A stretch of 64,000 nt of DNA from an uncultured Clostridia bacterium (GTDB lineage Bacteria; Bacillota; Clostridia; Christensenellales; UBA1242): contig CALWRJ010000010.1 of NCBI GenBank assembly GCA_944383915.1, forward strand, positions 3,099 through 67,098. The letters are read 5' to 3'. Numbering within the stretch: the stretch's first letter is position 1; each line of letters starts with the position of its first letter. The notes beneath the pieces were generated by a model, which was given only the letters and a program-made list of their open reading frames with translations, was not told where the DNA came from and did not search any database. Shown piece after piece: positions 2,319 through 36,803 of this stretch. The position numbers and the translations under genes are program-made.

Positions 2319-3713
2319 ATGGAAAAAAGTATTTCAAGGTCGAAGTATATCTTAATTGCTTTGGTAATATTAGTGCCGATGATTATACTTCTTTTTGCAG
2401 GGTGCGAACAAACAGGCAAAATGATTGAAAGTATTGAAAAAACAAATACAGTTGGCAATATTGATACCTACACGATTACTTATACTGACGGCACAACTTA
2501 TGAATTTACGATAGAAAATGGTACTGATGGCGCAGATGCAACTGCAAATATTCAAGATATTTATTCTGTAGCGGTTGAAAACGGATATTCAGGGACTATT
2601 CTTGAATTTATTTCTAGTTATTTACAAGTAGAAACAGACGATACAGCAGCAACTTCGCTAGCATTGCTTCCAAGTGTAACAGTAAAAGCGCCCTATACTC
2701 GTACTATTACGCAACCTGTACTTGTAGATGGTATGCTACAAATAATTACCTATGACCAAGAAGTAACTAGTGCGGGCTCTGGTGTAATATATAAACTCGA
2801 CAAATCTACGGGCGATGCATACATAATCACAAATTACCATGTTGTTTATGCTAATGATAACCAAAATGATAATAAAATTAGTGATTCAATAACTGTAACT
2901 CTATATGGCTCGAGCGAGGATATACCAGCCGAATATGTTGGCGGTTCGATGACTTATGATATAGCGGTTTTGCGTGTGGAAAATAGTGAACTTTTACAAG
3001 AATCTAGTGCACAGGCTATAAGTTTTGTTGATTCTGATATTATTAATGTTGGAGAAACAGCAATAGCAGTCGGCAATCCACAAGGACTAGGAATTAGCGC
3101 TACATCAGGTATTGTGAGCGTTGATAGCGAATATATTTCAATGACCGCAGTCGATGAAGTATCACAAGTAACCTTCCGTGTGATTCGTGTGGATACTGCA
3201 ATAAATAGTGGTAATTCTGGCGGTGGGCTATTCAATAAAAATGGCGAATTAATAGGAATAGTTAACGCGCGTATGTCAAATACGAGCATTGAAAACATTG
3301 CATATGCAATTCCAGCAAACATTGCCATTTCTGTTGCTGATAATATAATTGATAACGCAAATGACGATTTAGACGGCGTGCAGAAATTTGTAATAGGTGT
3401 TAGTGTCGTAGGTGAAAATTCTAGGGCTGTTTATGATACTGAAACTGCAACAACACAAATTGTAGAGGATGCCGTGATTAACGAAATAACGAGTGGCTCG
3501 CTTGCGGAAAGTGCTGGTTTAAGTGTTGGCGATGTAATTAATTCAATAGCTATTAATTATACGACTTACGATATAACTCGTCATTTTCAAGTAACCGATA
3601 GAATGCTTACCGTCCGCGCTGGCGAAAGTGTAGTAATTAACTATACTCGTGACGGAACAGAAGGGAGCGTAACATTCACCGCTGATGCTTTAAACTTTAC
3701 TACAATTGCATAA
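2319..3713 (+). CDS. htrA: HtrA/DegP-family trypsin-like serine protease with a C-terminal PDZ domain; probable lipoprotein
   Basis: RBS AGGAG at 2306-2310 precedes ATG 2319. N-terminal signal peptide with lipobox LFAGC. Catalytic contexts NYHVV and GNSGGGLF. PDZ-like GSLAESAGLSVGDVI. Confidence 0.8.
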   Translation: MEKSISRSKYILIALVILVPMIILLFAGCEQTGKMIESIEKTNTVGNIDTYTITYTDGTTYEFTIENGTDGADATANIQDIYSVAVENGYSGTILEFISSYLQVETDDTAATSLALLPSVTVKAPYTRTITQPVLVDGMLQIITYDQEVTSAGSGVIYKLDKSTGDAYIITNYHVVYANDNQNDNKISDSITVTLYGSSEDIPAEYVGGSMTYDIAVLRVENSELLQESSAQAISFVDSDIINVGETAIAVGNPQGLGISATSGIVSVDSEYISMTAVDEVSQVTFRVIRVDTAINSGNSGGGLFNKNGELIGIVNARMSNTSIENIAYAIPANIAISVADNIIDNANDDLDGVQKFVIGVSVVGENSRAVYDTETATTQIVEDAVINEITSGSLAESAGLSVGDVINSIAINYTTYDITRHFQVTDRMLTVRAGESVVINYTRDGTEGSVTFTADALNFTTIA

Positions 3714-14560: not shown

Positions 14561-15131
14561 TTTTCCTTGTCTTATTTAATAATTTTAAAATATCTTTGTG
14601 AACATACTTAAATGCAGAATTTTCACCGAATTTATCACAATTTTCATTATTATTTTCAGTTTTTAAATTTTTGTCTTTAAAAATATCTAGTTTCTTATTT
14701 TCGCTTTTGTCATTGATTAGCATATTGCCAAAAACTGTGTTTTGTACTTTTAAAGATAATTCGTTACTTATTTTCTTTCCTGTAAGTTTTGCAATATCAT
14801 GTAAAAACAAAGTCGAATCGGGCGTGTGATAGTTGTATTTACGATAGGCGAATTTAGATTCTAAATCATCATTATCGATAAATTGCACAAGGGTATCTAA
14901 AATATAATTTGCTCCGTCAACTAATTCTGGCAAGTCTAAATTTGCATAAACCTGCCTAAATGCAATTACAGCATCAAAAAAGTGATGGATATTATCTTTT
15001 GTTGGAATAGTGAGATTTAGCGGACCATGAAAATTTTGAATCAAATAGAATAGTATGCTTTCGTCAATATCGAGAGCATCATCTGGAAGTGCACTAGGCA
15101 TAGGATATTTTAAAAATAAGTCATTTTTCAT
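14550..15131 (-). CDS. Hypothetical protein
   Basis: 193 aa ORF overlapping the radC start by 11 nt (coupled). No motif recognised. Confidence 0.45.
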   Translation of the reverse strand: MKNDLFLKYPMPSALPDDALDIDESILFYLIQNFHGPLNLTIPTKDNIHHFFDAVIAFRQVYANLDLPELVDGANYILDTLVQFIDNDDLESKFAYRKYNYHTPDSTLFLHDIAKLTGKKISNELSLKVQNTVFGNMLINDKSENKKLDIFKDKNLKTENNNENCDKFGENSAFKYVHKDILKLLNKTRKNDE

Positions 15132-15234
15132 AATTAAAAATATATAAAATTTTTATCAAAAAATCAATTAATTTTTGATATAAAGAAATAAAAAAGGACT
15201 TTGAATACAAATTTTTTGTCCAAAGTCCTAAAAA

Positions 15235-15474
15235 TTATTGGTTGTTGTTAGATTTTTTCTTTTCCATAAAGTAGATTGCACCTTGCATACACGCAGCAAC
15301 AATCAACCAAATGGCAGACAATAATACAAGTACATAAATTATAATACTACCTGCATTGTATCCACCAAAAATCCAGTCGACCAAATTAAAGTTGAAAATG
15401 CCGACTAAACCCCAGTTGATACCACCAATCAAAAGTATAACAAAGGCTATCCAGTTAGGTATTACAAAACTCAT
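15235..15474 (-). CDS. DUF378-family small membrane protein
   Basis: Start moved to ATG 15474, which has RBS GGAGGTG at 15481-15487. Characteristic GGINWGLVG motif and two TM helices. Confidence 0.65.
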   Translation of the reverse strand: MSFVIPNWIAFVILLIGGINWGLVGIFNFNLVDWIFGGYNAGSIIIYVLVLLSAIWLIVAACMQGAIYFMEKKKSNNNQ

Positions 15475-15529
15475 CTTTTCACCTCCAAGCAATATTTTGT
15501 GCTAAAATATAAAAAATATTATTAATAAT

Positions 15530-15802
15530 TTAGGTATTTTTTGTAAAAGTTCCCTTTAAAATATCTTGTATTTTGCCTGAAATGTAAAGTGTATCTTTTG
15601 TCATATTTTTTATATCAAGATTTTCACCAAGAATTGTGTAAAAAGAGCCACTAATACTAAGTTCTATTTTTACGCTAGAACAAAAATTAATTAAAACACT
15701 ACCTTGTATATAAACGCCAAGTCCCGAATAATTTAGAATTAAATAGTTATTTTTTACCACTCCTGCCAATCCCAAATTTTCTAAAATTTCGTTAAGAAAC
15801 AT
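15530..15802 (-). CDS. yqfC: Sporulation protein, YqfC family (YabP-like fold)
   Basis: 90 aa with a YabP/YqfC-like pattern. It is divergent from a yqfD-like gene, as in Bacillus. Confidence 0.55.
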   Translation of the reverse strand: MFLNEILENLGLAGVVKNNYLILNYSGLGVYIQGSVLINFCSSVKIELSISGSFYTILGENLDIKNMTKDTLYISGKIQDILKGTFTKNT

Positions 15803-15870
15803 TCGCGCACCTCATAAAATATTCTATTTTTTATGAATTAGTAATATGATAAAAAGATAAGGGGTGAGAT

Positions 15871-16989
15871 TTGAAAAACTTTTTAAGTAATTTTCGAATA
15901 ATTGAAATAGAAATAAAAGGCGTTGGCTTTGGTTCGTTGTTAAATATGCTCGCACGCGAAAATGTGCATATAATCTCTACAAAAAGATTAGATAACACTA
16001 CTTTAAAAATAAAAATTTACGGCAAATATGCGCCTGTTACATTTGCAATACTTAAAAAAAGATGTTATAATTACATTATAACCAAAAATTTAAGCCTAGG
16101 TTATACGCAGTTTGGGGTAATAATTGGGTGTCTTTTAGCACTTATTATTTGGTGTGTTTTGGCTCAATTTTGTTTTGGTATAAAAGTAAATAGTGATGAT
16201 GAAAATCTAGTTGAGAAAATTAATTCTGTTTTAGCATCTCACAATTATTCAACTTTTCGTACTTTTGGCTCTCTCGACTTTAACGAAATAGAAAACACAC
16301 TCCGTAATGAAATTGACGATTTAGGGCTTGTTAATGTTTCTCGCCGTGGTGCTTATTTATGGATAAATTGTAATGCAGTGACTCCACCAATTGAAAATAA
16401 TACTATCGAAAACACAACAGGCGTATTTGCTACTACAAATGGTGTTGTTTCAAGGATTTTTGTTCATAGCGGTACAGCGCTTGTTAGGGAAGGAGATACG
16501 GTAAGTATGGGGCAAATGCTTATTGCTCCGTATTATCTCGATAACAATGATGAACCTGTTGCTTCGCTTGCTTCGGGAGAAGTTTATTTGTTTGTGTGGG
16601 ATTCGGCGACTGTTGAATTTCGCGAAATAGACCAAGCGCCAACGCGCACAGGAAGGACTGAAACAAGTACAAGGGTGTTGTTTAATGACGATGTTTTGTC
16701 TGATGACGCAAAAACTTGTTCTTTTGATAGTTACGAAGTCGAAACAAAAATTAAGTACTTGTCGCAAATTATTCCGGTAAAAATAGAATACACTACTTAT
16801 TATGAAACCGAACTTGTTACTGTAAATCGTGAGTATTCGGCAGAACGAGATGCGCTTATTTATGAGGCGCGAGAGCGTGCGTTGTCTATGGTTAACGAAA
16901 GCGAAATTTTAGATGAACGATATACCGAAAGTATGGCAGGGGACACTTATTATGTAACCTATTACCTAAAAAGAGAGATAAAAGTTTAA
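15871..16989 (+). CDS. yqfD: Sporulation protein, YqfD family (stage IV-like)
   Basis: TTG start with RBS GGGGTGA. Size, a single central TM helix, and position between yqfC and ybeY all fit. Confidence 0.55.
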   Translation: MKNFLSNFRIIEIEIKGVGFGSLLNMLARENVHIISTKRLDNTTLKIKIYGKYAPVTFAILKKRCYNYIITKNLSLGYTQFGVIIGCLLALIIWCVLAQFCFGIKVNSDDENLVEKINSVLASHNYSTFRTFGSLDFNEIENTLRNEIDDLGLVNVSRRGAYLWINCNAVTPPIENNTIENTTGVFATTNGVVSRIFVHSGTALVREGDTVSMGQMLIAPYYLDNNDEPVASLASGEVYLFVWDSATVEFREIDQAPTRTGRTETSTRVLFNDDVLSDDAKTCSFDSYEVETKIKYLSQIIPVKIEYTTYYETELVTVNREYSAERDALIYEARERALSMVNESEILDERYTESMAGDTYYVTYYLKREIKV

Positions 16990-16998
16990 AGGATTGTT

Positions 16999-17493
16999 AT
17001 GGAAGTAATTTTAACAAATAAAACGAAATACATTTTGCCTAATGCAAAAATTTTAAAAAAGATTGCAAAAAAAGTTTTAAAGCACGAAAACCAGCCTACA
17101 AAACATATTTCTGTTGGCGTATTTTATGTTGATGCGAACGAGATTCAAAAGATAAATAATGAGTATCGCAAAAAAGATAAGCCTACCGATGTAATTACTT
17201 TTCGTTTAGTTGATAACCCAGAGCATAAAAAAATTTGCAAGCAAAATTTTGCTTTTGATTACGATAAAAATATGGGTGGTATTTACATCGGCGAAATATT
17301 TATTTGTGTCGAAGTCGCAGATGAACAGGCTCACGAGTGGGGGCACACGCTAAACCGTGAAGTTGCTGAATTGTTTGTCCACGGAATGTTACATGTATTA
17401 GGGCATGACCACGAGGAAGAGCGAGAGCGCGAGATTATGCGAAATAGTGAGTTAGATTTAACTAATTTTTTGGATAAAATTATAAAGAAATAA
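16999..17493 (+). CDS. ybeY: rRNA maturation endoribonuclease YbeY
   Basis: Zinc motif HGMLHVLGHDH. Confidence 0.85.
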   Translation: MEVILTNKTKYILPNAKILKKIAKKVLKHENQPTKHISVGVFYVDANEIQKINNEYRKKDKPTDVITFRLVDNPEHKKICKQNFAFDYDKNMGGIYIGEIFICVEVADEQAHEWGHTLNREVAELFVHGMLHVLGHDHEEEREREIMRNSELDLTNFLDKIIKK

Positions 17494-17518
17494 AACTACG
17501 CGGGGGCGGGGAGTATCA

Positions 17519-17905
17519 ATGGAGCAAATTATTATAGATAAACTAATCGTTAAGGCAAAGGAAGCGGCAGAGCGCGCATATTGTCCTTGCAGTGAAACGC
17601 CTGTTGGAGCATGTGTGTTAACTCAAAGCGGAATGATTTTTACGGGATGTAATATTGAAAGTACTGCTCTCGCTGGGAGTCTTGGAGCAATGGAAGTGGC
17701 AATATGCAAGGCAATTAGCGAAGGCGGAACTTCTATTATGGCGGTTGCAAATTATTGCGAACGCGGTATTTCATATCCAACAGGAAATGAAAGACAGTTT
17801 TTGCGCGAATTTACGGAACGAGCAAATATAATTTGTGCAAGCAAAAATAAAATAGAGCAATTTAAGATTCAAGAATTGTTGCCTTTTTCGTTGCGCGATG
17901 ATTAA
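17519..17905 (+). CDS. Cytidine deaminase homologue with degenerate catalytic motifs
   Basis: Aligns by eye to homotetrameric Cdd (PVGACVLT, GCNIES, AICKAISEG). CAE is replaced by GAM/AME and PCGxCRQ by PTGNERQ. Its position after ybeY matches the Bacillus cdd position. Confidence 0.6.
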   Translation: MEQIIIDKLIVKAKEAAERAYCPCSETPVGACVLTQSGMIFTGCNIESTALAGSLGAMEVAICKAISEGGTSIMAVANYCERGISYPTGNERQFLREFTERANIICASKNKIEQFKIQELLPFSLRDD

Positions 17906-18206
17906 TTGTTTTAAATAAATTAATTTGAAAAGCGCACATTGACACTACTAGGCTTTTTTGATAAAATATATTTGTTTTAATATAGTAAATCTATTTTTTC
18001 AAAATTGGTTGATTTCAAAAAGATAAAATAGCCACTACTAATTTAAAGCGCTTTTCTATGTAAATCTTATTTATTATATTTTTGTTATTATGAGCAAATG
18101 AGATTAAATTAATTTTTTAAAAGAAAGACTTTAATTAATGATTTCAATTAATAAATTAAAAACTCTTTATATTTTATAAAAATTATAATTTTAAATAATT
18201 TTTTAT

Positions 18207-18289
18207 GCGGATGTGGCGGAATTGGCAGACGCGCTAGGTTCAGGTCTTAGTGGGAAACCATGGAGGTTCGAGTCCTCTCATCCGCACCA
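18207..18289 (+). tRNA. tRNA-Leu (anticodon CAG), long variable arm, CCA encoded
   Basis: Acceptor GCGGATG/CATCCGC, anticodon loop TTCAGGT, T arm GGAGG-TTCGAGT-CCTCT, 3' ACCA. Confidence 0.9.
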
Positions 18290-18394
18290 GTAAAATTTAA
18301 TATCCTAACGGACTCGAACCTACGGTTCGCACCGTTCGCTTTGCTCACTCTCACGCCCGCCAGCAAAGCGAGTTTGCTGTCCGCTTTGGCTAAA

Positions 18395-18419
18395 AACAGC
18401 ACGCCCGTGCTGTTTTCTT
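18395..18419 (+). terminator. Rho-independent terminator 106 nt downstream of tRNA-Leu
   Basis: AACAGCAC-GCCC-GTGCTGTT hairpin followed by TTCTT. Confidence 0.65.
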
Positions 18420-18466
18420 AACGCGTCGCGCCTCTCATCCGCACCAATTTACGCAACTTCGTTGCG

Positions 18467-18723
18467 AATTAGCAATTAGCAATTAGGAATTTGCAATTAT
18501 TGTGCGCGTGCGCGCAAGACTACTCGCTGACGCTCGAATTTTGAATTAGGAATTTTGAATTTTGAATTACGGAAGGTATTATTTAAATTAATATTTTATA
18601 TCCAGCCTTAACTGCTAATTGCTAATTGCTCATTGCTAATTCTCGCAAAGCGAGTAAGATTGCTACCTGCTAATTGCTAATTTACGCTTTGCGTGGTAGA
18701 TTCCTAATTCACAATTCCTAATT
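18467..18723. repeat. Five blocks of AATT-core heptad repeats (19 units): two blocks forward, three inverted
   Basis: Forward blocks: 18467-18501 is (AATTAGC)x2 AATTAGG AATTTGC AATTATT. 18536-18570 is GAATTTT GAATTAG GAATTTT GAATTTT GAATTAC. Inverted blocks: 18614-18641 is GCTAATT x2 GCTCATT GCTAATT. 18669-18682 is GCTAATT x2. 18703-18723 is CCTAATT CACAATT CCTAATT. Confidence 0.9.
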
Positions 18724-18824
18724 AAAGTATAGCCGATAGGCGAAGCGTAAAGACATTTTTAAATTACTTGCTTATTTTTGTTGATTTTTAGTGCATAATT
18801 TTATATACTAAAAAAGGAGTGTTT

Positions 18825-19397
18825 ATGGAAAATTTAGAAAATAATGAAATTACTTTGTTTGACGGAGTTTTAGACAAAGACGAAAAAGTAATTAAGGTTA
18901 TAAAACCAAACAAGTTGAAATTGTTTATCAGTTGGTTTATGTTAGCGTTTTGGATAAATGTTTGGATAGCAATTATCGGCATTTTACCAATGGCTATTGA
19001 AACGCAAGAACCGATTGGTTGGGAATATTATATGATTCCTGTAGGGATAATCGTTTTAATTTTTATATTAACAGGAATTTTTGCGCAAATTTACTATAAA
19101 AACAATTTCTATGCGTACACAAATGCTAGAATATTAATTCGTTCAGGCATTATTGGTATAGATTTTAAAAGTTTGGATATGCGTTATGTTGGGGCATTAA
19201 ATGTTAGAGTTGGTTTTTGGGATAAAGTTTTAAAACAAGAAACAGGCACTATAACATTTGGAAGTATGTCTAGCCCTATGGCATCGTCTAAACAGGTTGG
19301 GTATAATTTTGCTCATGTTGAAAAACCTTATGAGTTGTATAAAGAAATGAAGCAAATTGTAGAGGAAGTTAAAAATCAATATAAAAATATAGTTTAA
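18825..19397 (+). CDS. Membrane protein with a bacterial PH (YdbS/DUF304-like) domain
   Basis: RBS AGGAG precedes ATG 18825. Two TM helices are followed by YAYTNARILIRSG...TGTITFG. Confidence 0.5.
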   Translation: MENLENNEITLFDGVLDKDEKVIKVIKPNKLKLFISWFMLAFWINVWIAIIGILPMAIETQEPIGWEYYMIPVGIIVLIFILTGIFAQIYYKNNFYAYTNARILIRSGIIGIDFKSLDMRYVGALNVRVGFWDKVLKQETGTITFGSMSSPMASSKQVGYNFAHVEKPYELYKEMKQIVEEVKNQYKNIV

Positions 19398-19479
19398 AAG
19401 CAAGCATTTGCTTTTTTCTTTTTTAAAATAATTTGTAAAAATAAAATTTTATGGTAAAATAATAATAAAGGAGTTTAAA

Positions 19480-19740
19480 ATGATTCATTCGTTAGCGGGC
19501 GGAAAAATGCGCGATATGGATATCGTTGATTTTGCAAAAGTTGAGATTATAGAAAGCGGTGAAGTTCGCTGGTATATAACAAATATTTTAGGGTTAAAAG
19601 TAGGGGATATAGTAAAAGTCCCAACGTTTTCTAATAATTTAACAAATGCAAAAGTCTTAAAAATAGAAAAAAATGTATCCGCTCAATGTGCGCCAATTCC
19701 CATAAAGCGTGCAAAAGAAATATTTAGCAAGGTGGAATAA
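19480..19740 (+). CDS. Hypothetical protein (86 aa)
   Basis: RBS AAGGAG. Coupled to the next gene (2 nt gap). No motif recognised. Confidence 0.45.
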   Translation: MIHSLAGGKMRDMDIVDFAKVEIIESGEVRWYITNILGLKVGDIVKVPTFSNNLTNAKVLKIEKNVSAQCAPIPIKRAKEIFSKVE

Positions 19741-19742
19741 TC

Positions 19743-20186
19743 ATGATAAAAAATATCTTTATTTTAGGCGCTGTAACAGGCACTGAGTCTGCCTGGATTG
19801 ACCATTTTTTAAACCTTAAAGAAATTATTCTTGAATTTTATCCAAATTTAAATGTTACTACTCCGCTTGATATAGAAAGTTTTTGCGATATTCAAAGGAA
19901 AAAGGGGTTGGAGCAAGGACAAATTTTATTAAAAATGGCAAATTTTGACCGCGAGTGTGTTTTAAATGCTGATTTAATAATTTGTGATTGTACTCGAGCA
20001 TCTACGGGACTCGGAATCGAATTAGGTATGGCGTACGAAAACGGCAAAAGAGTAGTACCATTTGCTCATATTAATGCAGAAGTTAGTGGCTTAGTAAAAG
20101 GCTTTTTCGGTGAAATCAATCGATATAACACTTTAACAGACATAGCGAAAAGTTTAGATAAATACATTAATGTATCAAAAAATTAA
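19743..20186 (+). CDS. Nucleoside 2-deoxyribosyltransferase-like protein
   Basis: Core ADLIICDCTRASTGLGIELGMAYENGKRVV resembles the NDT/SLOG-type Rossmann motif. Confidence 0.4.
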   Translation: MIKNIFILGAVTGTESAWIDHFLNLKEIILEFYPNLNVTTPLDIESFCDIQRKKGLEQGQILLKMANFDRECVLNADLIICDCTRASTGLGIELGMAYENGKRVVPFAHINAEVSGLVKGFFGEINRYNTLTDIAKSLDKYINVSKN

Positions 20187-20322: not shown

Positions 20323-23300
20323 ATGTTGAACAAAATATTTTATTTATCAATTTTTGCTTTAATTTTTACTTTAGGTTTGATATTGTTATCGTTTGGAACT
20401 TTAACTAAATCATATGCAAGTGAAACAATTTATATAGAAAGCGAGAGTGACTTAATAAATTTTGCTGAACGCGTAAATAGTGGAGAAGTATTTTTAAACG
20501 CTGTCCTAACAAGCGATATTACTATAACTTCTAATTTTGATTATATTGGTAAAAGAGTTATAGTTGATGGCGAAATTTTGAGCGGGTATAGTGGAGTATT
20601 CGATGGGAATTATCATACTATTAGTGGTTTAAATTTTTCTAGTGGTGGCTTAAATGGTTTATTTGGTTACACAGATGGTGCAACTATTTCAAATTTGATA
20701 GTTTCTAGTACTGTCGATATTTCGAGTATGGCTAGTACTGCATATATAGGTGGTGTAATTGCTAGTGCGGTAAATACTACTGTTAATAATTGTGCGATTT
20801 ATTTAACGGTAAGTGGTGAAAGTAATGCTAGGACTTTAATTGGTGGCGTTTTTGGTGTTGATACAAGTACGGAACGCACTCCTAATAATATTGAAAATTG
20901 TATTGTGTATTTTGAAAATTATGCATATGAAGGAAGCAAGTCGCTATATATAGATTCTGTAACTGCGCAGACTAGTCAAACTGAACCAAAAATAACAAAT
21001 TCTTTGTTTTATCAAAACTTTAATTCAATTAGTTACTCATCTACTACATCATGTTTCCATAATTTTGAAAATAAATGCTTAAATGATAGTTGTGCCTTTA
21101 TACCAACTGAAAATATGAGTTTGTGTTCGAATTGTGGACTTTATTATCTAAATTTTGATAGTAGTCACACAAATGCTGTAAAGAAAACTGAAATAACACC
21201 AACTCTTAAAACTAATGTTTACGATTATTCGCCAAATGGCATAAAATTAGAATTTAACGAAATTAATAAGACTGATTTAAATCACGATGTTTCGTTTAGT
21301 TATGAAATAGATGACATTAATACAGGTGCGCGTTCGGCAAAAGTAACTTTGATAGGGGATGATGCCGAAAAGTACACACTTACTACCGATACTGTTTATT
21401 TTACTATTTCGCCACTAAATGTTTATATTGATATTGAAAACACAACTTCAATTTATGGCGAAACTTTATCAACTCCTAAGTATACAATTTCAAATTCTAA
21501 TGTAGAAGTTTCCTTTTCGTATAAAAAGAACGGAGTGGCTACAAATTTATTTGATGTTGGTGTGTATGAAATAGTGCCTAGTGTTGCGGACAAAAATTAT
21601 TTGTTAATAAATCAAAATTCTGCCACTTATACTATTACTCCCGCTAAAATTTCACTTGTTGAAAAATCTTTTACTCATACTTTTGATAATACTACTTATA
21701 AGCCTAATTTGATATTAAATGGTGTTTTAGATAAAGATAAAAATGAAGTTAACTATCAATTTTTAGACACTTTACCTACAAATTTCGGCACTTACTCAGC
21801 AAAAATTGAATTAATAGGTGAGCGCGCATACAATTATGAATTGTTAGATAGCAACATAGAAATAAACATTTCGCCTAAGCCAATTACTGTGATTTGGAAT
21901 AAAACTAGTTTAATTTTTAACAATGATTATCAGTCCCCGCTTGCAACACTTGATACAGGTATTGCTAATTATTCTCTAAATAATGTTTCTTATAGTGGAA
22001 AGGGAAAAGATGTTGGAGAGTATACAATTTTGTGCTCTATTAGTGACAAAAACTTTATTCTTGAGAACAACTCACTTAAATATGAAATATTGCCGTTTGA
22101 GTTAAAACTAGAGTATGAAAATTTGAGTTTTACATTTGATAATAAAGAACATTTGCCAAGTTATTCCTATACACTTCCTTTTGATTATAAATTTTCAATA
22201 ACGGAGTCTGCTAAAAATAAATTTGCAGGCGACTATACGGCAACTTTTGAAAGTTTGGATAAAAACATTGAGATTTTAAATCCAAATTGTGCTTACTCTA
22301 TAATTGCCCGTGATGTTTCGGTTAATTTTACAAATACAATGGTAGAATTTGATAATACAACACAATTTCCTAATTATTCTCTTGATTGCGAAATTGATGA
22401 TTACGAAATAAAAGTAATCGAAAATGGTATTTGCATAGATGCTGATACTTACGATGTTTCGGTAACGAGCAATGACAAAAATATAAATTTAATAAATAAC
22501 AAAACTTCGTTTACAATTTTACCTTATGAAATTACATTAGATTATTTTGATACTGAAGTAGCATTTTGTAATGATTATGTTTTACCTAAATTCAATTTTA
22601 CTGCGCCTTATTTTGCTCCTAATTTACCAATAACTCTTACGTGCGCGCAAAAAGATGTAGGTCAATATGTTGCAAACGCAGTTTTATTAAATAAAAATTT
22701 TAGTATAACAAATCCTGAAATCATTTTTGTAATAATACCTTTTAAAGCAAGTGTAGTATGGACAAATACAACGCACATTTTTGATAATGAAAATTTTGCA
22801 CCAAGTGCAAGTGTTGATTTGCCATTTGAATATAATTTAGAAATAATTGTTTCAGGCTCAGCAATTAATGCGGGTAAATATTCAGCGAACGCCACTACAT
22901 CGGATAAAAATATAATTTTAGAAAATACAACTTGCAATTATGAAATTTCACCGCGAAAAGTCGAGTTATCGTGGGGTGACCTAACTTTTACTTATAGCGG
23001 TTATCCTATTGTGCCTAATTATACTTTTGATGATTTTGGTTATAATTTCTCTATAGACTTAACTACGAGTGGAATAGATGTTGGAGAACATACGGCGGTT
23101 GCAAAGTGTAATAATATTAATATAGAACTAGTTAATTCGACTGCTAAGTATAAAATTTTACCATTAGAGATAAGTGTTATTTGGGAAAACACAACTTTCA
23201 CATATGATGGTTTGTATAAAGTGCCGTCAGTAATAGTTGATACAGCAGATATTACTATAAATCCAAATTGTATACCGAGTTTATTTGTTAGCGGTGGCGC

Positions 23301-23877
23301 TACAGAAACGGGGACATTTACAGCAACCGCAAGCACTTTAAACAATAATTTTATACTTTTAAATGATACCTGCGAATTTACGATACTTCCTTGTACAATG
23401 GTTATTGAAAATGACAACAGTGATATATCCGTTATGATTTCGGGCGAAATAAACACTTCACAAGTAGAAGCTAGTTTTATCGATACCGAAGGGTTAACCG
23501 AAATGCTTCCCGAAGGTTACATTATTTACTTTGCTATTGATTTAAATTCAACAACACTAGAATTTGGTGATGTAAGTGATTTAAATGTTTCTATCTCACT
23601 TCCTATTTTATTTCAAAATTTTGATATTTTTCTTATTACAGATACTGTTACTAAAATTGATTATACTACACTAGATAGTAACCTAAATTTTGTTATGAGT
23701 GATTACGGAATAATTTGTCTAGCACTACAAAATAATACAAGTGATAATATTAATATTGCTTATGTGATTGCTGGGAGTATTTGTGGATTAATACTTTTAA
23801 TACCAATCATAGTATTGATTTGTAGAAAAATTAAAAATTCAAAGACTATTTTAATTACAATTAGAGATGGTCATTGA
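20323..23877 (+). CDS. Giant cell-surface protein: signal peptide, GLUG-type N-terminal region, about 10 tandem MBG-like modules, C-terminal TM anchor
   Basis: The N-terminal region contains FDGNYHTISGL and GGLNGLFGY (GLUG-like). Modules of about 75-80 aa each end in Y.I.P..(I/L)..; examples are YTITPAKISL, YEILPFELKL, YEISPRKVEL and YKILPLEISV. The C-terminus has a hydrophobic helix followed by CRKIKNSK. Confidence 0.7.
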   Translation: MLNKIFYLSIFALIFTLGLILLSFGTLTKSYASETIYIESESDLINFAERVNSGEVFLNAVLTSDITITSNFDYIGKRVIVDGEILSGYSGVFDGNYHTISGLNFSSGGLNGLFGYTDGATISNLIVSSTVDISSMASTAYIGGVIASAVNTTVNNCAIYLTVSGESNARTLIGGVFGVDTSTERTPNNIENCIVYFENYAYEGSKSLYIDSVTAQTSQTEPKITNSLFYQNFNSISYSSTTSCFHNFENKCLNDSCAFIPTENMSLCSNCGLYYLNFDSSHTNAVKKTEITPTLKTNVYDYSPNGIKLEFNEINKTDLNHDVSFSYEIDDINTGARSAKVTLIGDDAEKYTLTTDTVYFTISPLNVYIDIENTTSIYGETLSTPKYTISNSNVEVSFSYKKNGVATNLFDVGVYEIVPSVADKNYLLINQNSATYTITPAKISLVEKSFTHTFDNTTYKPNLILNGVLDKDKNEVNYQFLDTLPTNFGTYSAKIELIGERAYNYELLDSNIEINISPKPITVIWNKTSLIFNNDYQSPLATLDTGIANYSLNNVSYSGKGKDVGEYTILCSISDKNFILENNSLKYEILPFELKLEYENLSFTFDNKEHLPSYSYTLPFDYKFSITESAKNKFAGDYTATFESLDKNIEILNPNCAYSIIARDVSVNFTNTMVEFDNTTQFPNYSLDCEIDDYEIKVIENGICIDADTYDVSVTSNDKNINLINNKTSFTILPYEITLDYFDTEVAFCNDYVLPKFNFTAPYFAPNLPITLTCAQKDVGQYVANAVLLNKNFSITNPEIIFVIIPFKASVVWTNTTHIFDNENFAPSASVDLPFEYNLEIIVSGSAINAGKYSANATTSDKNIILENTTCNYEISPRKVELSWGDLTFTYSGYPIVPNYTFDDFGYNFSIDLTTSGIDVGEHTAVAKCNNINIELVNSTAKYKILPLEISVIWENTTFTYDGLYKVPSVIVDTADITINPNCIPSLFVSGGATETGTFTATASTLNNNFILLNDTCEFTILPCTMVIENDNSDISVMISGEINTSQVEASFIDTEGLTEMLPEGYIIYFAIDLNSTTLEFGDVSDLNVSISLPILFQNFDIFLITDTVTKIDYTTLDSNLNFVMSDYGIICLALQNNTSDNINIAYVIAGSICGLILLIPIIVLICRKIKNSKTILITIRDGH

Positions 23878-30631: not shown

Positions 30632-33600
30632 ATGGTAACAAAAGATAAAAAATTTATTGGAAATTACAATATCGGATTAGATATTGGCGTAGAATCGGTA
30701 GGTTGGGCTGTAGTCGATGAAAATCAAAATTTGATTACGCGTAAAGGTAGACATCTTTGGGGAAGTAGGTTATTCGATAAAGCAACTAGCGCAAAAGATC
30801 GCCGCGCTAAGCGTAGTTTACGCCGTAGATTATTGCGCCGTAGGGTTAGAATGATGCAATTAAGAGAGTTGTTCGGTGATTTTATAAATGACAACGATTT
30901 TTTTCAGCGACTAGATGAAAGTTTTTTGCATATAGATGATCGAGAGCAAAAAAACGCGGATATCTTATTTTTTAATAGTACAGCCTCAATTATAGATTTA
31001 GAAAATAACAAAAAAATAATTATCGATAGTGACCAAAAATATTTTGAAAATTTTCCTACGATTTTTCATTTAAGGAAAGATTTAATAAATAATGAAAACG
31101 CGCAGTATGATCCTAAGTTGATATATTTAGCGGTGCATAATATATTGAAATACAGAGGTAACTTTTTATATGAAAATTTAAACGCAAATGACAAGGAAAC
31201 ATTATTTGTCTTGTATGATGATGTAGAAAATGAAGTGCAAAATTTAGTAAATAGTGATGATTATTGTTTTGCTGATGATATAGAGAAAAACTTATTAATA
31301 AACACCTTGCTAGACAGTACAAAAAAGAAGGACGAGCAAAGAAAAATTATAGCACATAACTCTAAACAACTAGCAGAATTTGTAAAGATGCTTCAAGGTG
31401 ATAAATTTGATTTATCTAAAATATTTGTTAGTGAAAATACAGATAATGATAGTAAAGATGAAAATACAATAAAGTATTCATTTTCAGATAGCGATTTTGA
31501 AAATAAAATTGAAAATGCTGGCGAATATGTAGACTTTTTACAATATGCGCAAAAATTATATTTAGCAATTGAATACCAGAAAATAATGAAGGGCGAAAAA
31601 TATATTTCTAATTTAATGGTAAAAAGGTATGAAAAATATAAAGAGCAATTAAACGCATTAAAATATATATTTAGAAATTGTTTTTCGAAAGATGAATATA
31701 AAGCGTTTTTTAGAGATTTGAAAGTTAAAGATAATTATGCTAGATTTACTGAGGGTGAAGTAAATTGTTCACTCGATGACTTACAAAAGGAAATTCTTAA
31801 AAAACTAAAAAGTATTGACCAAAATACTATTAGCCAAGACATAAAAGAAAAAATTATTTTTATTTTAGATGAAATAGAAAATAAAAGACTTTTTATAAAA
31901 CCGAGAAATAATAAGAATGGTATTTTCCCTATGCAAGCAAATCTTGCGGAACTAGAAAAAATACTTGATAACCAAAGCAAATTTTATCCTATGTTAGCAG
32001 ATATTAAGGATAAGATTTTAGAATTGTTTAAATTTAGAATTGATTATTTTGTAGGACCACTTGCCATAAACTCTAAAAATGAAAATAATTTCGGCTGGAT
32101 AGTTCGTAAACCTGGCTATGAGAATGTAGTAATAAATGCTTATAATTATAATAACGCTATAAATTTCGAGGAAACACAAACTAAATTTATAGAAAAAATG
32201 ACGGGAGATTGTACATATATATTAGGCGAAAAGGCTTTGCCTAAAAACTCTATTTATTACTGCTGGTTTAATGTTATTAATGAAATTAGTAATTTATCTG
32301 TTTCTATTGATGGTAAAGATTATACTTCGTTAAGAAAAATTGAAATAGGCGGTAAATATGCCGTTGAGTATATTATAGATAGATTAATGGAAACAAATAC
32401 TTATAAAAAGAAAGATTTAGTTGCTCTATTAAAAAGTGAGTACAATACTCCAAATATTGATGTAAAGGGATTTTCTAACAAAGAAACACTTATTTCAAAT
32501 TTAAAACCTTATAGAGACTTTATTCGAATTTTCAAAAAACCTGAAACAACTAATGCGCGCTTAGTAATCAATAATGATAATATAGATATGATAGAAAATA
32601 TCATTAAAGATATAACTATTTTTGGAGATAATAAAGAGGGCTTAAAAAATAGATTAAGGCACGCTTATCTAGTTTTAACCGAACAACAAATAAAAGAATT
32701 GAGCAATCTTAATTACAAAGGCTGGGGTAATTTAAGCAAAAAATTAATTTATGGCATAAAGGCATTAAATAGTGATGATGCAGGTAAAACAATACTTGAT
32801 TTAATGGGTGAAAATTTAAGAAATTTTAGTTCTATTTATAACGATCCTAAGTATCAGTTTAAAGAGCAAGTCGAAAAAATGTGGGGTGAGTCAAAAAATA
32901 GTATTCGTGAGCAAATAGACGAACTTGCGGGTTCTGCAGAAATTAAACGCGGAATTTCCCAGGCATTTCTTATAGTAAAGGAATTAGAACATGTTATGGG
33001 CAAAGCGCCTAGTAATATTTATATTGAGTTTGCTCGAGATGAGCAAGACAAAAAACTTACAAAATCAAGACAGAAAACTGTCAAAGAAAAGTATGATGCT
33101 ATAAAGAAAAACTATAGAGATTTATACAATGATATTGCTAGTAGAGTTGAAATTGGATACCTTGATGATGAAAATAAGAAAGCAGACTTTAATAAAGAAA
33201 AATTCTTTTTATACTATCTGCAAGGTGGAAAATGTATGTATACAGGTGAGAAACTAGATATAAATTCTTTGGATAAATATGATGTAGACCATATTATTCC
33301 ACAAAGCATTATTAAAGATGATAGTTTAGATAATAAAGTTTTAGTCTTAAAACAGGCTAATATGGACAAGTTAAATAGCGATGTAGTGCCAGAGCTTTTT
33401 AGAAATAAAATGAAAGGTTATTGGTATGAACTAAAAGAGGCAGGTCTTATTACTCAAAGTAAATATTCAAGATTAATGCGTGCTGAATTTTCTAAAAATG
33501 ATATTGGTCACTTTATAAATAGGCAATTAGTTGAAACAAGACAAATAACTAAAAACACTGCTATTATTTTGAGTGAATATTTTAAGAGGAAGAGGCAAGA

Positions 33601-34933
33601 AGTTGGAATTTATCCTGTAAAAGCAGGTATTAATAGCCTTTTTAGAAAAAGATATGATTATCCAAAAGGTGAAGGTGCGCGCGCTCTAAATGATTTGCAT
33701 CATGCAAAAGATGCTTACATAACAGCATTTATGGGAGATTATTTAAGGCAAAATTATGGTTTAGATATTATTGAAAGACGACACACAACTTTTTATCAAG
33801 ATTATTTATCAATGAAAAATACAGCAGATTATAATGAAACAGATGATGCAAATGAAAAGAAAAAATATAAGAATAAATATGGTTTAGTATTTTATGCTAT
33901 GAACAAAGAAGGCTCTTTGTGGGATAGAAAAAATAATGATTCGATAAGTGTAAATCAAGCGCTTGAAAATTTTGATAATAATTATTATAAAATTGATTGC
34001 TATGTTAGTCGCAAAACGGAAATGACGAACTCAGGAAAGTTGTTTAAGGAAACTAGGCATAAAAATAAAGATAGGGCGATACAGTTTGGTGAAATAAATG
34101 CAAATAGTAGTTCTTATAATCTAATTCCATTGGGAAAGAATAAATTTAATAAATATTATGATACAAGTAAATATGGTGGATATAGCGATATAGAATATGC
34201 GTATTCATTAGTTATTAAGTATAAAAAAGATGAAAAAGAAATCATAGAATTAATTGGTGTTCCAAGAATATATACAATAAGCACGAGTGATTTAGATATT
34301 TGTAAGTTTTTATATAATAAGTATGGGCATTTTGAAGTTTTATTTAAAATACCAAAGCATCAATTAATATTACTAAATAATAGTAAGTATTTATATGTGT
34401 CAAGTTTTAGTGAATTTTATTTAGCAAAACAATTCTTGATAACTAAAAATGACAAAGAATTAAATCGCTTTTTATATTTAGTTTTTAAATATAGTAGTGA
34501 TCTAAATAAATGGGCTATAGATAATAATTTTAAAATAGAAGGCAATATTAAAGAATATATCAACCTTAATTTTAATTCTTTTGTGAATGTTTATTTAACT
34601 TTTATAAAAAAATATATGGTAATTTCAGAAAGAAAATCTGACAAAGATAATTTAATACAAAAATTAACATACACTCTAGAACAAGCAAATGATAATTATT
34701 CAATAGAGGAGAAAATAAAAATAATTCCTGAATTATTAAAAATTACTGCAAATAAGCCAGTTAGGGGAAAATTTGATGGATACTACTATTTTAATATTGA
34801 TGGTGAAAAAATAAACTTACCGAAAGAAATGGGGAGATTAAGTTTTACATTAAACTTAAATAAGAATGATGTAACGCTTATATATAATTCCATCACTGGT
34901 ATATACTCAAGAAAGAAAAAAATAATAAACTAG
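30632..34933 (+). CDS. cas9: Cas9 (type II-A), 1433 aa, all nuclease residues present
   Basis: RuvC-I is IGLDIGVESVGWAVV. An Arg-rich bridge helix (RRAKRSLRRRLLRRR) follows. RuvC-II is IYIEFARDEQ. HNH is YDVDHIIPQS...DNKVL...N. RuvC-III is LHHAKDAYI. Confidence 0.95.
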   Translation: MVTKDKKFIGNYNIGLDIGVESVGWAVVDENQNLITRKGRHLWGSRLFDKATSAKDRRAKRSLRRRLLRRRVRMMQLRELFGDFINDNDFFQRLDESFLHIDDREQKNADILFFNSTASIIDLENNKKIIIDSDQKYFENFPTIFHLRKDLINNENAQYDPKLIYLAVHNILKYRGNFLYENLNANDKETLFVLYDDVENEVQNLVNSDDYCFADDIEKNLLINTLLDSTKKKDEQRKIIAHNSKQLAEFVKMLQGDKFDLSKIFVSENTDNDSKDENTIKYSFSDSDFENKIENAGEYVDFLQYAQKLYLAIEYQKIMKGEKYISNLMVKRYEKYKEQLNALKYIFRNCFSKDEYKAFFRDLKVKDNYARFTEGEVNCSLDDLQKEILKKLKSIDQNTISQDIKEKIIFILDEIENKRLFIKPRNNKNGIFPMQANLAELEKILDNQSKFYPMLADIKDKILELFKFRIDYFVGPLAINSKNENNFGWIVRKPGYENVVINAYNYNNAINFEETQTKFIEKMTGDCTYILGEKALPKNSIYYCWFNVINEISNLSVSIDGKDYTSLRKIEIGGKYAVEYIIDRLMETNTYKKKDLVALLKSEYNTPNIDVKGFSNKETLISNLKPYRDFIRIFKKPETTNARLVINNDNIDMIENIIKDITIFGDNKEGLKNRLRHAYLVLTEQQIKELSNLNYKGWGNLSKKLIYGIKALNSDDAGKTILDLMGENLRNFSSIYNDPKYQFKEQVEKMWGESKNSIREQIDELAGSAEIKRGISQAFLIVKELEHVMGKAPSNIYIEFARDEQDKKLTKSRQKTVKEKYDAIKKNYRDLYNDIASRVEIGYLDDENKKADFNKEKFFLYYLQGGKCMYTGEKLDINSLDKYDVDHIIPQSIIKDDSLDNKVLVLKQANMDKLNSDVVPELFRNKMKGYWYELKEAGLITQSKYSRLMRAEFSKNDIGHFINRQLVETRQITKNTAIILSEYFKRKRQEVGIYPVKAGINSLFRKRYDYPKGEGARALNDLHHAKDAYITAFMGDYLRQNYGLDIIERRHTTFYQDYLSMKNTADYNETDDANEKKKYKNKYGLVFYAMNKEGSLWDRKNNDSISVNQALENFDNNYYKIDCYVSRKTEMTNSGKLFKETRHKNKDRAIQFGEINANSSSYNLIPLGKNKFNKYYDTSKYGGYSDIEYAYSLVIKYKKDEKEIIELIGVPRIYTISTSDLDICKFLYNKYGHFEVLFKIPKHQLILLNNSKYLYVSSFSEFYLAKQFLITKNDKELNRFLYLVFKYSSDLNKWAIDNNFKIEGNIKEYINLNFNSFVNVYLTFIKKYMVISERKSDKDNLIQKLTYTLEQANDNYSIEEKIKIIPELLKITANKPVRGKFDGYYYFNIDGEKINLPKEMGRLSFTLNLNKNDVTLIYNSITGIYSRKKKIIN

Positions 34934-34940
34934 GTTAGTT

Positions 34941-35813
34941 ATGAGTTTTAGAACAATAGTTATTACCCAAAAATCTAAATTATCGTTTAAAGATAATTTT
35001 ATGATGATACATGGCGATGAATTAAAAATGGTGCATTTATCAGAGATAAACACAATTATTATTGAAAGTAATTTAGTCCAGATTTCTGCATACTTATTAA
35101 ATCAAATATCGAAAAATAAAATAAAGTTAATTATATGCGATGAAAGGCATAATCCCACCGCTGAAATGGTGCCTTATTATTCAAATTATAATACATCCAA
35201 AAAAGCAATTCAACAGGCAAAATGGACAGATGAAGCAAAACAAGTTGTTTGGACAAATATAATAATCAACAAAATAAAAAATCAAGCAAATTTGCTCGCT
35301 GAAATAGGTAATGATAGGGCTGTTTTGCTTGCGAAATATGTTGAGGAAGTCGAATTGGATGATGTAACCAATCGTGAAGGACATTCTGCAAAAGTTTATT
35401 TCAATGGCTTGTTTGGGCTAGATTTCACAAGAGATAAAGTATGTGATATAAATATGGCTTTAGATTATGGATACACTATTTTATTATCGGCATTTAATAG
35501 GGCTATATCAAGTTTAGGTTATATTAATCAATTGGGAATTAAGCATAAAAATGAGTATAATTATTTTAACTTAGGTTGTGATTTAATGGAGCCATTTCGA
35601 GTGTTAATAGATAGTTATGTCTATAACAATAAAGAAAGAGTTTTTGATGCAGATTACAAAAAAGATTTAGTGCAAATTTTAAACAAAAATATTGAATTTT
35701 GTGGCAAAAATATGTATTTAATTAACGCAATTAGTATTTTTGTAAATAATGCCTTAAGGGCTGTTGATGAAAATAGAATAACGGAATATAGTTTTTATGA
35801 GTATGGAATATAG
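34941..35813 (+). CDS. cas1: Cas1 integrase (type II)
   Basis: 290 aa with the typical type II Cas1 N-terminus (RTIVITQKSKLSFKDN), plus EGHSAKVYF and HKNEYNYFNLGCDLMEPFR. Confidence 0.9.
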   Translation: MSFRTIVITQKSKLSFKDNFMMIHGDELKMVHLSEINTIIIESNLVQISAYLLNQISKNKIKLIICDERHNPTAEMVPYYSNYNTSKKAIQQAKWTDEAKQVVWTNIIINKIKNQANLLAEIGNDRAVLLAKYVEEVELDDVTNREGHSAKVYFNGLFGLDFTRDKVCDINMALDYGYTILLSAFNRAISSLGYINQLGIKHKNEYNYFNLGCDLMEPFRVLIDSYVYNNKERVFDADYKKDLVQILNKNIEFCGKNMYLINAISIFVNNALRAVDENRITEYSFYEYGI

Positions 35814-36123
35814 ATTTATGAGATTGATAGTATTTTTCGATTTGCCAACATATACAAAACAGGATTTGCAAAATTACAATTTATTTAGAAGATTTTTAAT
35901 TAAAGAGGGTTTTGCAATGATGCAAGAATCAGTTTATACTAAAATTTTATTAAATGGGACAATGGCAAATTTATTAAAAGAGCGTATTAAGAAAAATGCG
36001 CCCAAAAAAGGACTAGTTCAGATGCTTTTAGTTACCGAAAAACAATTTGCTAGTATAGAATATATTAGTGGTGAATCAAAAAGCATTATAGAAGATTCAG
36101 ATAAAAGGTTTTTAGTATATTAA
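35797..36123 (+). CDS. cas2: Cas2
   Basis: 108 aa, MRLIVFFDLPT...FRRFLIKEGFAMMQESVYTKIL. Overlaps the cas1 end. Confidence 0.9.
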   Translation: MSMEYRFMRLIVFFDLPTYTKQDLQNYNLFRRFLIKEGFAMMQESVYTKILLNGTMANLLKERIKKNAPKKGLVQMLLVTEKQFASIEYISGESKSIIEDSDKRFLVY

Positions 36124-36803
36124 TGAATATAAAATTTTTTGAAATAGAAACACCAATTTATTTTAGGCAAGGTGTTATTAGCGTTTTGGAAATTCATAAT
36201 AAATTATTGTTTAAAAATTTAGTTATGAATTTATATAAAATAAATCAAGGTTTGAGTACTGATACCTCTATTAATATAATTGATAAAGATGAAATATCTA
36301 GTCTAAAAAATTTCGAGTTAATAACTGATGTTTTTAATATAAATGAAAGCGGAATTAATAACAAAATAACTAAATTTTTAAATAGTGAATTGGAAAATTC
36401 CGATTTGTATAAACCTGTGTTGGAAAGTTTGGAAAATTTAAAAGGTAATTTTTTGCGTTTTTTTGATGACTTTCCTTTTGAGTTATGTTATAATGATAAT
36501 GTAACAATTTTAGATTTATTAAAAGATTTTTCTCCTAAAATAAGTTTTCAGTCTCAAGTAAGTTATTTAGGTATAATTAATAATTATTTAAAGGCTATAA
36601 AATTATTAAACATTACTAATTTAATTATTTTTGTAGATATAAAAAAATACCTATCAATTGACGAAATAAAAGAATTTTATAGCAATATTTTTATGATAGA
36701 TATACCTGTACTTATAATTGAGTCAACTTCAGCCGATTTAATAAAAGACTATGAATGGAAGTTGATTATAGATGATGACTTATATGAAAAAAGTTCTTTT
36801 TAG
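36123..36803 (+). CDS. csn2: Csn2 (short form), the type II-A marker
   Basis: 226 aa, positioned between cas2 and the array. Csn2-like N-terminus (...VISVLEIHNKLLFKNLV...). Confidence 0.75.
   Translation: MNIKFFEIETPIYFRQGVISVLEIHNKLLFKNLVMNLYKINQGLSTDTSINIIDKDEISSLKNFELITDVFNINESGINNKITKFLNSELENSDLYKPVLESLENLKGNFLRFFDDFPFELCYNDNVTILDLLKDFSPKISFQSQVSYLGIINNYLKAIKLLNITNLIIFVDIKKYLSIDEIKEFYSNIFMIDIPVLIIESTSADLIKDYEWKLIIDDDLYEKSSF

Follow-up and report, generated by a model that had tools for sequence, protein, structure and literature searches.

Among the older examples of heptanucleotide repeats in bacteria are the STRR repeats of the cyanobacteria Calothrix and Nostoc, and Elhai and colleagues reportedly described, in 2008, small dispersed repeats in heptamer arrays. 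Heptanucleotides constitute an over-represented class of longer simple sequence repeats (SSRs) in many bacteria, for which an origin by polymerase slippage has been proposed (Mrazek et al., 2007, as reported in PMC4679880 and PMC4692102). In Xanthomonas, GGGAATC repeats are intergenic, consist mostly of four units and form 70-75 convergent pairs per genome that are capable of folding into stem-loops or cruciforms, and whose function is not established (Rehm et al., 2015, PMC4692102). TAACTGA repeats show a patchy, cross-phylum spread over Beggiatoaceae, cyanobacteria and Bacteroidetes, and a translational role has been suggested for them (MacGregor, 2015, PMC4679880). Heptads of another kind make up the parS sites of the omega system, in which 7-10 contiguous WATCACW units stand in mixed orientation, at least four being needed, and overlap the copS, delta and omega gene promoters of inc18 plasmids (PMC9499535). 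Here, we describe a block of AATT-core heptads at positions 18448-18760 of a 64,000-nt stretch of DNA from an uncultured Clostridia bacterium (contig CALWRJ010000010.1; this whole stretch is called the window), located in the spacer that follows a tRNA-Leu gene. The reading that we favour, at a probability of roughly 0.55, is that the block is a compound heptanucleotide-repeat quasi-palindrome and one copy of a widespread intergenic class of convergent heptamer arrays, that it lies as a passenger or relic at a tRNA-Leu hot spot and grew by slippage and duplication, and that any activity it has would be structural. Assignment to the class is solid; unit, arm length, arm complementarity, spacing and intergenic position all match; the mechanism we infer.

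The window is a chromosomal segment of low GC content (32.5%) from a Clostridia-type genome, and its closest relatives are metagenome-assembled genomes (MAGs) labelled uncultured Clostridia or Christensenella. All elements that a sequence-only reading had listed for 18448-18760 are present base for base, and inspection of the sequence bears out the 19 phased heptads which it had counted. These lie in five blocks between 18467 and 18723, two forward and three reverse, with small GC-rich hairpins between them. Tandem Repeats Finder (TRF) delimited four period-7 arrays (18467-18499, 18609-18641, 18659-18682 and 18700-18723) with 76-88% matches, and no further AATT-type array in the 64 kb. With at most two mismatches allowed, the double heptad AATTAGCAATTAGC is matched nine times in the window against 2.2 expected, a count reached by none of 100 shuffles; eight of the nine matches fall in the block region, as do, within the 313-nt region, 12 of the window's 26 AATT-7-AATT pairs. 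The heptad blocks are non-coding and far beyond chance. That no open reading frame (ORF), tRNA, CRISPR or known riboswitch would explain the region had been claimed earlier and is correct: no ORF of at least 40 aa covers 18422-18787, the region holds no tRNA, and Rfam 15 returned, apart from tRNAs, no family at gathering score over the whole window and nothing but chance-level matches at E<10 over 18150-18900. Stop codons occur in all six frames of AATTAG[C/G] arrays, as can be read directly from their sequence. Readings of the block as a coding region, a CRISPR or a riboswitch were rejected, as was that of a replication origin, a skew change being absent. A contig assembled from a different sample (L226), located through exact-protein look-up of the cluster mate P0104, is 99.96% identical over 7.1 kb and carries an identical heptad block, which is therefore real DNA and not an assembly artefact; exact-protein look-ups for the bPH and cdd genes and for P0001 returned no record.

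The elements of the block are the following (coordinates, strand, element and the evidence for it):

18448-18466, no strand: left end, TTTACGC, which matches GCGTAAA (18745-18751) as its complement and runs into mini-hairpin 1; from the sequence, the outer stem being paired in the folds
18452-18466, no strand: mini-hairpin 1, CGCAAC-TTC-GTTGCG (15 nt); from the sequence
18467-18501, plus strand: block A, five forward heptads AATTAGC/AATTAGC/AATTAGG/AATTTGC/AATTATT; TRF period 7, 4.7 copies
18502-18536, no strand: GC-rich spacer of exactly 35 nt, i.e. five heptad lengths (34-nt GC unit at 18502-18535), opening with GTGCGCGTGCGCGC; from the sequence
18537-18571, plus strand: block B in the AATT frame, AATTTTG, AATTAGG, AATTTTG, AATTTTG, AATTACG; direct repeats D2 and D4
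18536-18570, plus strand: block B in the GAATT frame, GAATTTT/GAATTAG/GAATTTT/GAATTTT/GAATTAC; from the sequence
18572-18608, no strand: AT-rich centre, GC about 0.27; GC profile and sequence
18609-18641, minus strand: block A', 4.7 reverse heptads TAACTGC-TAATTGC-TAATTGC-TCATTGC-TAATT; TRF, inverted repeat I1
18614-18641, minus strand: heptads GCTAATT/GCTAATT/GCTCATT/GCTAATT within block A'; from the sequence
18642-18654, no strand: mini-hairpin 2, CTCGC-AAA-GCGAG; sequence and folds
18659-18682, minus strand: block A'', 3.4 reverse heptads ATTGCTA-CCTGCTA-ATTGCTA-ATT; TRF, second copy of the 41-nt unit (D1)
18669-18682, minus strand: two GCTAATT within block A''; from the sequence
18684-18694, no strand: mini-hairpin 3, ACGC-TTT-GCGT; from the sequence
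18700-18723, minus strand: block B', 3.4 reverse heptads, third copy of the 41-nt unit; TRF, inverted repeat I3
18703-18723, minus strand: CCTAATT/CACAATT/CCTAATT within block B'; from the sequence
18724-18751, no strand: right end, small hairpin GCC-GATA-GGC, then GCGAAGCGTAAA; inverted repeat I22, folds

Larger units are superimposed on the heptads. The left half is a 70-nt duplication, in which block B is a diverged copy of block A, and because the spacer between them is exactly 35 nt long the two blocks share one 7-nt register. The right half consists of three copies of a 41-nt unit (18618-18740), each with heptads over about 24 nt, then a hairpin of 13 nt and a further 4 nt, the second and third copies being 73 and 63% identical to the first. 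The two halves face each other, with arms A:A' (18466-18499 and 18609-18642) complementary at 88% over 34 nt (30/34 bp) and arms B:B' (18541-18567 and 18700-18726) at 85% over 27 nt. It follows from the block order A-B-A'-A''-B' that the A:A' and B:B' pairings cross. In both RNA and DNA folds the A:A' stem is dominant and is closed by the outer TTTACGC/GCGTAAA stem; GCGAAGCGTAAA at the right end is complementary to TTTACGC (18448-18454) and also to 18681-18692. We also note that GTGCGCGTGCGCGC (18502-18515), with which the register-keeping spacer starts, is 14 nt of perfectly alternating purines and pyrimidines and hence Z-DNA-prone.

With its period-7 tandem units, non-coding position and complementary convergent arms of about four units, the block belongs to the heptamer SSR class. 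It shares with the Xanthomonas GGGAATC repeats (PMC4692102) intergenic 7-nt tandem arrays of about four units in close convergent pairs; however, the Xanthomonas unit is G-rich, G-quadruplex-prone and present about 185 times per genome, whereas the unit in the window has an AATT core and forms a single cluster in 64 kb, in which five blocks, interleaved mini-hairpins and higher-order repeats of 41 and 70 nt are combined. With the TAACTGA repeats (PMC4679880) the window has in common an A/T-rich heptamer, short intergenic arrays (2-6 copies), the mixing of related heptads within arrays and a patchy distribution that suggests horizontal spread with no known mechanism, and its first reverse heptad, TAACTGC, resembles TAACTGA. 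Nearly all TAACTGA sets are direct and precede start codons by a few nucleotides, a position that hints at a role in translation, whereas the arrays of the window form inverted pairs at a distance of about 100-360 nt from the next ATG, upstream of it and outside its promoter. Long SSR (LSSR) and STRR heptanucleotide repeats are likewise intergenic, but they occur genome-wide in heptad-rich genomes, and the genome of the window appears heptad-poor. Pneumococcal BOX elements, Neisseria Correia elements, MITEs (miniature transposable elements with inverted repeats) and repetitive extragenic palindromes with their paired forms (REP/REPIN) are all modular palindromic repeats enriched away from promoters. 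All of them share with the block a non-coding, intergenic and modular character, a quasi-palindromic layout and internal tandem units; the arms of the block, by contrast, are microsatellite arrays and not unique terminal inverted repeats. Our search of the literature found no paper on AATTAGC, AATTAGG or AATTACG arrays. The block fits a known but unexplained kind of sequence, the convergent heptamer arrays, with a new unit and in a new lineage.

Metagenome contigs were searched with the pattern AATTAGSAATTAG-N{110,140}-CTAATTSCTAATT, i.e., two AATTAG[C/G] heptads, a gap and two inverse heptads. The architecture of the window is found in at least 120 contigs; the figures given below for this class refer to the matches listed, in contigs of 34 to 68% GC. 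The variable S base is complementary between the two arms at 122 of 124 sites, and arm length has its mode at 4-5 heptads, with medians of 5 and 5 (5 and 4 in the window). The sites lie between genes, usually right up against the neighbouring ORFs, several of which end within the first heptad. Convergent gene flanks outnumber divergent ones by 32 to 8 and, as the two arrangements must be equally frequent in any genome, the elements show either a preference for 3' ends or an avoidance of spacers with promoters. Among the tandem repeats of the motif-bearing contigs, a period of 7 far outnumbers every other, and further period-7 arrays occur there at 2.4 per 10 kb (AATT core in 72/164). Most of the sequences enclosed by the arms are unrelated to one another (59 of 124 are singletons), and when the window block was compared with all fetched loci by blastn the matches were confined to the arrays. 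Rfam had no match, other than tRNAs, in 20 metagenome loci of related architecture or in the relative L002.

One family within this class is dispersed, with 19 copies in 18 contigs and a single pair that shares its flanks. Its members are quasi-palindromes some 300 nt long, whose arms contain AATTAGG arrays on either side of a conserved GC-rich core, and the palindrome reaches beyond the arrays; Rfam does not match the family and a 16-sequence alignment of the core gave no covariation (covariation term -0.07). Its ends are too ill-defined to look for target-site duplications. The element has outer GGGATTT/AAATCCC repeats. The contigs that carry it are of high GC content (about 60-67%); they are:

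19-copy family: L236, L241, L246, L253, L254, L258, L276, L290, L292, L294
19-copy family, continued: L309, L314 (two sites), L316, L320, L321, L325, L338, L339

The main rival reading, which we consider rather unlikely, is that the block is a non-autonomous mobile element (MITE- or REPIN-like) inserted by tRNA-Leu, its convergent arrays serving as multi-site terminal or subterminal repeats to which a transposase or recombinase encoded elsewhere binds. Dispersal of the 19-copy family to sites with unrelated flanks and its lack of compensatory covariation are as expected for spreading copies, and fixed arm length, arm complementarity and the use of the same heptad in genomes of 34-68% GC, together with the avoidance of divergent spacers that would hold promoters, point the same way, as do the 7-nt outer inverted repeats TTTACGC/GCGTAAA of the window. 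Against it, neither the 64 kb nor the relatives contain another copy of the window block, no target-site duplication (flanking direct repeat) was found around it, and no transposase gene lies nearby. The 59 singletons among the 124 cores show that the arrays are not tied to one element, and since the palindrome of the 19-copy family extends past its arrays, these are not its termini.

The compound layout of the window recurs in L233 (6174-6340), in the interval from a lemA-like gene's stop codon to the next ATG. The stop codon lies inside the first heptad and the ATG lacks a Shine-Dalgarno sequence; the order is forward heptads, ACGCTTCGCGT hairpin, reverse heptads, GCGCTTTGCGTC hairpin, reverse heptads. 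Small CGC-TTY-GCG hairpins thus separate the arrays there as well, the ACGCTTYGCG-type likeness to the window being too short to count. In L334 (257-395), the whole spacer from tRNA-Leu to tRNA-Cys, within a tRNA cluster, is taken up by convergent AATTAG arrays, which there must belong to the tRNA precursor transcript.

In viral contigs (IMG/VR), exact triple heptads were found at 24 loci for AATTAGC, at 72 for AATTACG and at 115 for the published TAACTGA, and at 3 and 7 loci for the scrambled controls of the same composition ATAGTAC and ATGATAC; AATT-core triplets are 3-24 times commoner than scrambled controls. The viral loci with heptads hold 509 tandem arrays of period 7, against fewer than 150 for any other period. 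Array pairs are inverted in 32 cases and of the same orientation in 19, the inverted ones often having 4-5 units around a 10-40-nt loop, and many arrays lie directly upstream of a ribosome-binding site (RBS) or an ATG. At the 110-140-nt spacing, matches are too few to inform (convergent 0, divergent 0, direct 2). Some patterns of variants recur, for example CGTAATT-CGTAATT-CGTCATT-CGTAATT-C in L068 against GCTAATT-GCTAATT-GCTCATT-GCTAATT-C in the window. A recurrent viral form, in contigs of 55-58% GC, is a hairpin of four AATTACG, a 10-14-nt loop and four or five CGTAATT, at the following sites:

L060: 5825-5899 and 9607-9680
L068: 3649-3724, 4776-4857 and 5920-5995
L074: 1488-1563 and 3000-3075
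L036 and L047: further copies

These hairpins stand just upstream of the RBS and ATG of several genes, some sharing a conserved AGCGAA-AGAGAGCGA leader, and they may be a phage intergenic regulatory or processing module. In two contigs of giant-virus MAGs (L017, 13086-13184; L022, 1-127), GCTAATT is repeated perfectly 14-18 times at the ends of the stretches examined; long heptad arrays of this kind may break assemblies or mark genome ends.

The spacer in which the window block lies, and the boundary on its far side, contain these features:

18207-18289, plus strand: tRNA-Leu (CAG), left boundary of the hot spot; ARAGORN, Rfam tRNA 50.7 bits
18290-18430, no strand: GC-rich filler of 141 nt between two copies of the tRNA 3' end; GC 0.50-0.57
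18431-18446, plus strand: exact 16-nt direct copy of the tRNA-Leu 3' end, CCTCTCATCCGCACCA, an att-like duplication; repeat search
18781-18827, plus strand: promoter TTGATT-17-TATACT (18781-18809), RBS AAGGAG and ATG (18825) of the bPH_2 gene, outside the element; promoter scan, Pfam bPH_2

The block had been described as lying downstream of tRNA-Leu. It does share a spacer with this gene, but not as its direct neighbour, the 141-nt filler and the 16-nt tRNA 3'-end copy intervening. The last 16 nt of the tRNA (CCTCTCATCCGCACCA, from 18274) recur 157 nt downstream, and the heptad block begins 2 nt past this second copy; the filler contains an inverted copy of the T arm (18310-18321) and, at 18393-18416, a hairpin that resembles a terminator and precedes TTTTCTT (inverted repeats I18 and I21); this hairpin was recognised by eye and not called by the terminator scan. 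Among the 11 related loci whose orthologous spacers were compared, only L002 keeps tRNA-Leu upstream of the bPH gene, and no relative falls between 80 and 100% protein identity. The L002 spacer has three copies of CCTCTCATCCGCACCA (2835-3317) and filler pieces that are 77-98% identical, and it contains no heptads. Because the tRNA 3' end is duplicated in the window and present in three copies with shared filler in L002, the 3' flank of tRNA-Leu is a recombination or integration hot spot in this lineage. The duplications and filler look like scars of repeated integration or excision, the integrase being gone. Compared with the attachment (att) sites of tyrosine integrases, the locus has a 16-nt duplication, but this encloses only 141 nt and no integrase gene lies within about 9 kb.

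The heptads could then be arm-type sites, in the remnant of an attachment site, for the integrase or excisionase of an element using tRNA-Leu as attB. The start of the block 2 nt after the exact tRNA 3'-end copy, and the three such copies in L002, are in keeping with this idea, which we nevertheless regard as very improbable. Integrase and excisionase genes were not found nearby, with respect to the second copy the block is on the chromosomal side, and members of the class are not enriched at tRNA genes (3 of 124 sites near tRNAs). Known integrase arm sites, moreover, are 9-11 bp long and do not abut at 7 bp. The more general proposal of the sequence-only reading, a relic of an integrated element, remains plausible in view of the duplicated tRNA end at the tRNA-Leu 3' hot spot, of the GC content of the block, 27-43% against 9-19% in the flanking spacers, and of its being the sole heptad cluster observed in a genome otherwise poor in heptads.

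Transcription of the block, by read-through from tRNA-Leu or from a weak promoter-like site (18555-18582), would produce a long hairpin, for which a role as terminator, RNase III site, insulator or stabiliser can be imagined. Folding gives z-scores of -3.7 on the plus and -3.2 on the minus strand, A:A' being the dominant stem. These values fit such a functional RNA, but they are those expected for any inverted repeat, from which a strong fold follows trivially. Members of the class are enriched at gene 3' ends; viral arrays and those of L233 are inside operons directly upstream of start codons and so are transcribed there, and the L334 arrays separate two tRNA genes. The window block, in contrast, sits between a probable terminator, the hairpin of the filler, and the conserved promoter of the next gene, its stems are not followed by a T-run and the terminator scan found nothing. 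As Rfam gave no match and the one alignable family no covariation, a functional RNA seems improbable.

The arrays had also been compared to omega-type ribbon-helix-helix (RHH) heptad iterons, and hence to a centromere or operator, an analogy that finds no support here. More broadly, the block could be a cis-acting protein-binding array, either an omega-like RHH operator or centromere or a site at which a nucleoid-associated protein nucleates on phased AATT minor grooves, that regulates the PH-domain (bPH) gene or is a relic of a partition site or origin. What it shares with the omega parS/operator of inc18 plasmids such as pSM19035 is a 7-bp unit, abutting repeats, both orientations and blocks of at least four contiguous units, the working minimum for omega parS (PMC9499535); the strict 7-bp phasing, the single register kept across the 35-nt spacer and the position just upstream of a promoter are also what such an array would show. 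The omega consensus WATCACW is, however, absent from the heptads and from the whole of 14831-19983, and the orientations are segregated, the blocks of 5, 5, 4, 3 and 3 units having one orientation each and being separated by gaps of 13-43 nt. Omega and delta genes, plasmid context and promoter overlap are lacking; among the 19 neighbouring ORFs, over about 9 kb, Pfam scans found no gene for an RHH, ParA, ParB or Rep protein, an integrase or a transposase. A blastn search of 18290-18760 against plasmids and phages with the 'distant' setting gave no match. In other contigs the heptad unit varies between sites of the same contig, which speaks against one sequence-specific binder for the class.

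The neighbouring genes are housekeeping chromosomal ones, with YabP, YqfD, YbeY and cytidine deaminase upstream, and the bPH_2 membrane protein, two small ORFs, an 1184-aa protein without Pfam domains, NfeD and Band7 downstream; ABC transporters and MarR are also among them. Dedicated regulation of the PH-domain gene, as had been suggested, is unlikely. Its promoter, downstream of the heptad block, is conserved in the related MAGs L001-L003, in which the upstream regions are short, of 17-26% GC and free of heptads; relatives thus retain the promoter and not the block, which is therefore dispensable for the downstream gene in them. A protein-binding array of either kind is, in our view, quite improbable. 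What was found is a dispersed type of repeat without positional conservation, the outcome that the sequence-only reading had itself set against its proposal. It had recommended a search for further arrays; about 70 kb of the relatives hold none, and metagenome and viral contigs carry many.

We return to the reading of the block as a compound heptamer quasi-palindrome that is most likely passenger or relic DNA, acquired or generated at the tRNA-Leu hot spot. Such an arrival or origin is suggested because the block is GC-richer than the neighbouring spacers and the genome is otherwise heptad-poor; provisionally, and judged on 64 kb, it is an isolated copy in a heptad-poor, AT-rich genome. Its arrays would grow by 7-nt replication slippage and its larger units would duplicate locally (70 nt on the left, three times 41 nt on the right), the two sides being kept complementary by inverted duplication or intrastrand template switching. 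No dedicated partner protein is encoded nearby, and whatever effect the block has would be due to its folding back on itself. In DNA, the A:A' stem of 30/34 bp could give rise to a cruciform, and in read-through RNA to a long hairpin; such a structure would act as a barrier that separates the tRNA-Leu unit from the next gene's promoter. Several observations weigh against this account. Slippage and template switching were not seen, the only other strain available (L226) being 99.96% identical and having the same block, so that it offers no copy-number polymorphism. The narrow mode of 4-5 copies favours a constraint or dedicated mechanism over neutral slippage, with which the recurrence of one heptad at very different GC contents (34-68%) also fits poorly. 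The two arm pairs cannot form together without a pseudoknot, and the isolation of the copy is judged from 64 kb of genome.

A further reading is kept open because fixed arms of 4-5 units and the same heptad in unrelated genomes fit a mobile element better than slippage. The convergent, complementary AATT-core arrays (AATTAGG, AATTAGC and AATTACG) of fixed 4-5 units would then constitute an unrecognised cross-phylum system, of which the window would hold a Clostridial copy captured at tRNA-Leu, and not the product of ordinary slippage. Such a system may be a superfamily of small mobile palindromic elements, or may comprise sites made or measured by a dedicated enzyme acting as a molecular ruler of about 30-35 bp. 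We put this forward tentatively, as an unlikely explanation of the block.

Two other features of the window deserve mention. The 1184-aa ORF (20323-23877) has no Pfam domain at E<0.01 and is conserved in the near-identical L226. At 30632-38271 lies a complete type II-A CRISPR-Cas locus with cas9 (1433 aa), cas1, cas2 and csn2 (Pfam); after these genes comes an array in which the 36-nt repeat GTTTTAGTATCATGTAATTCTAAAAGGTAATATAAC occurs about 21 times at a period of 66 nt.

For this genome little is at stake, as the block is probably inert passenger DNA and not a hidden plasmid centromere or regulator. Beyond it, the same few AATT-core heptads recur in bacteria and in viral contigs that differ widely in base composition. 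Arm length is close to constant at 4-5 units, the two arms are almost always complementary, and the spacers are filled up to the flanking stop and start codons. Published work treats taxon-specific cases only, namely GGGAATC in Xanthomonas, TAACTGA in Beggiatoaceae and cyanobacteria, and the STRR repeats. The cross-phylum regularities of the AATT-core arrays are unexplained and may merit a systematic survey; if a common mechanism that generates or reads them exists, the arrays would provide an easily searchable handle on it.

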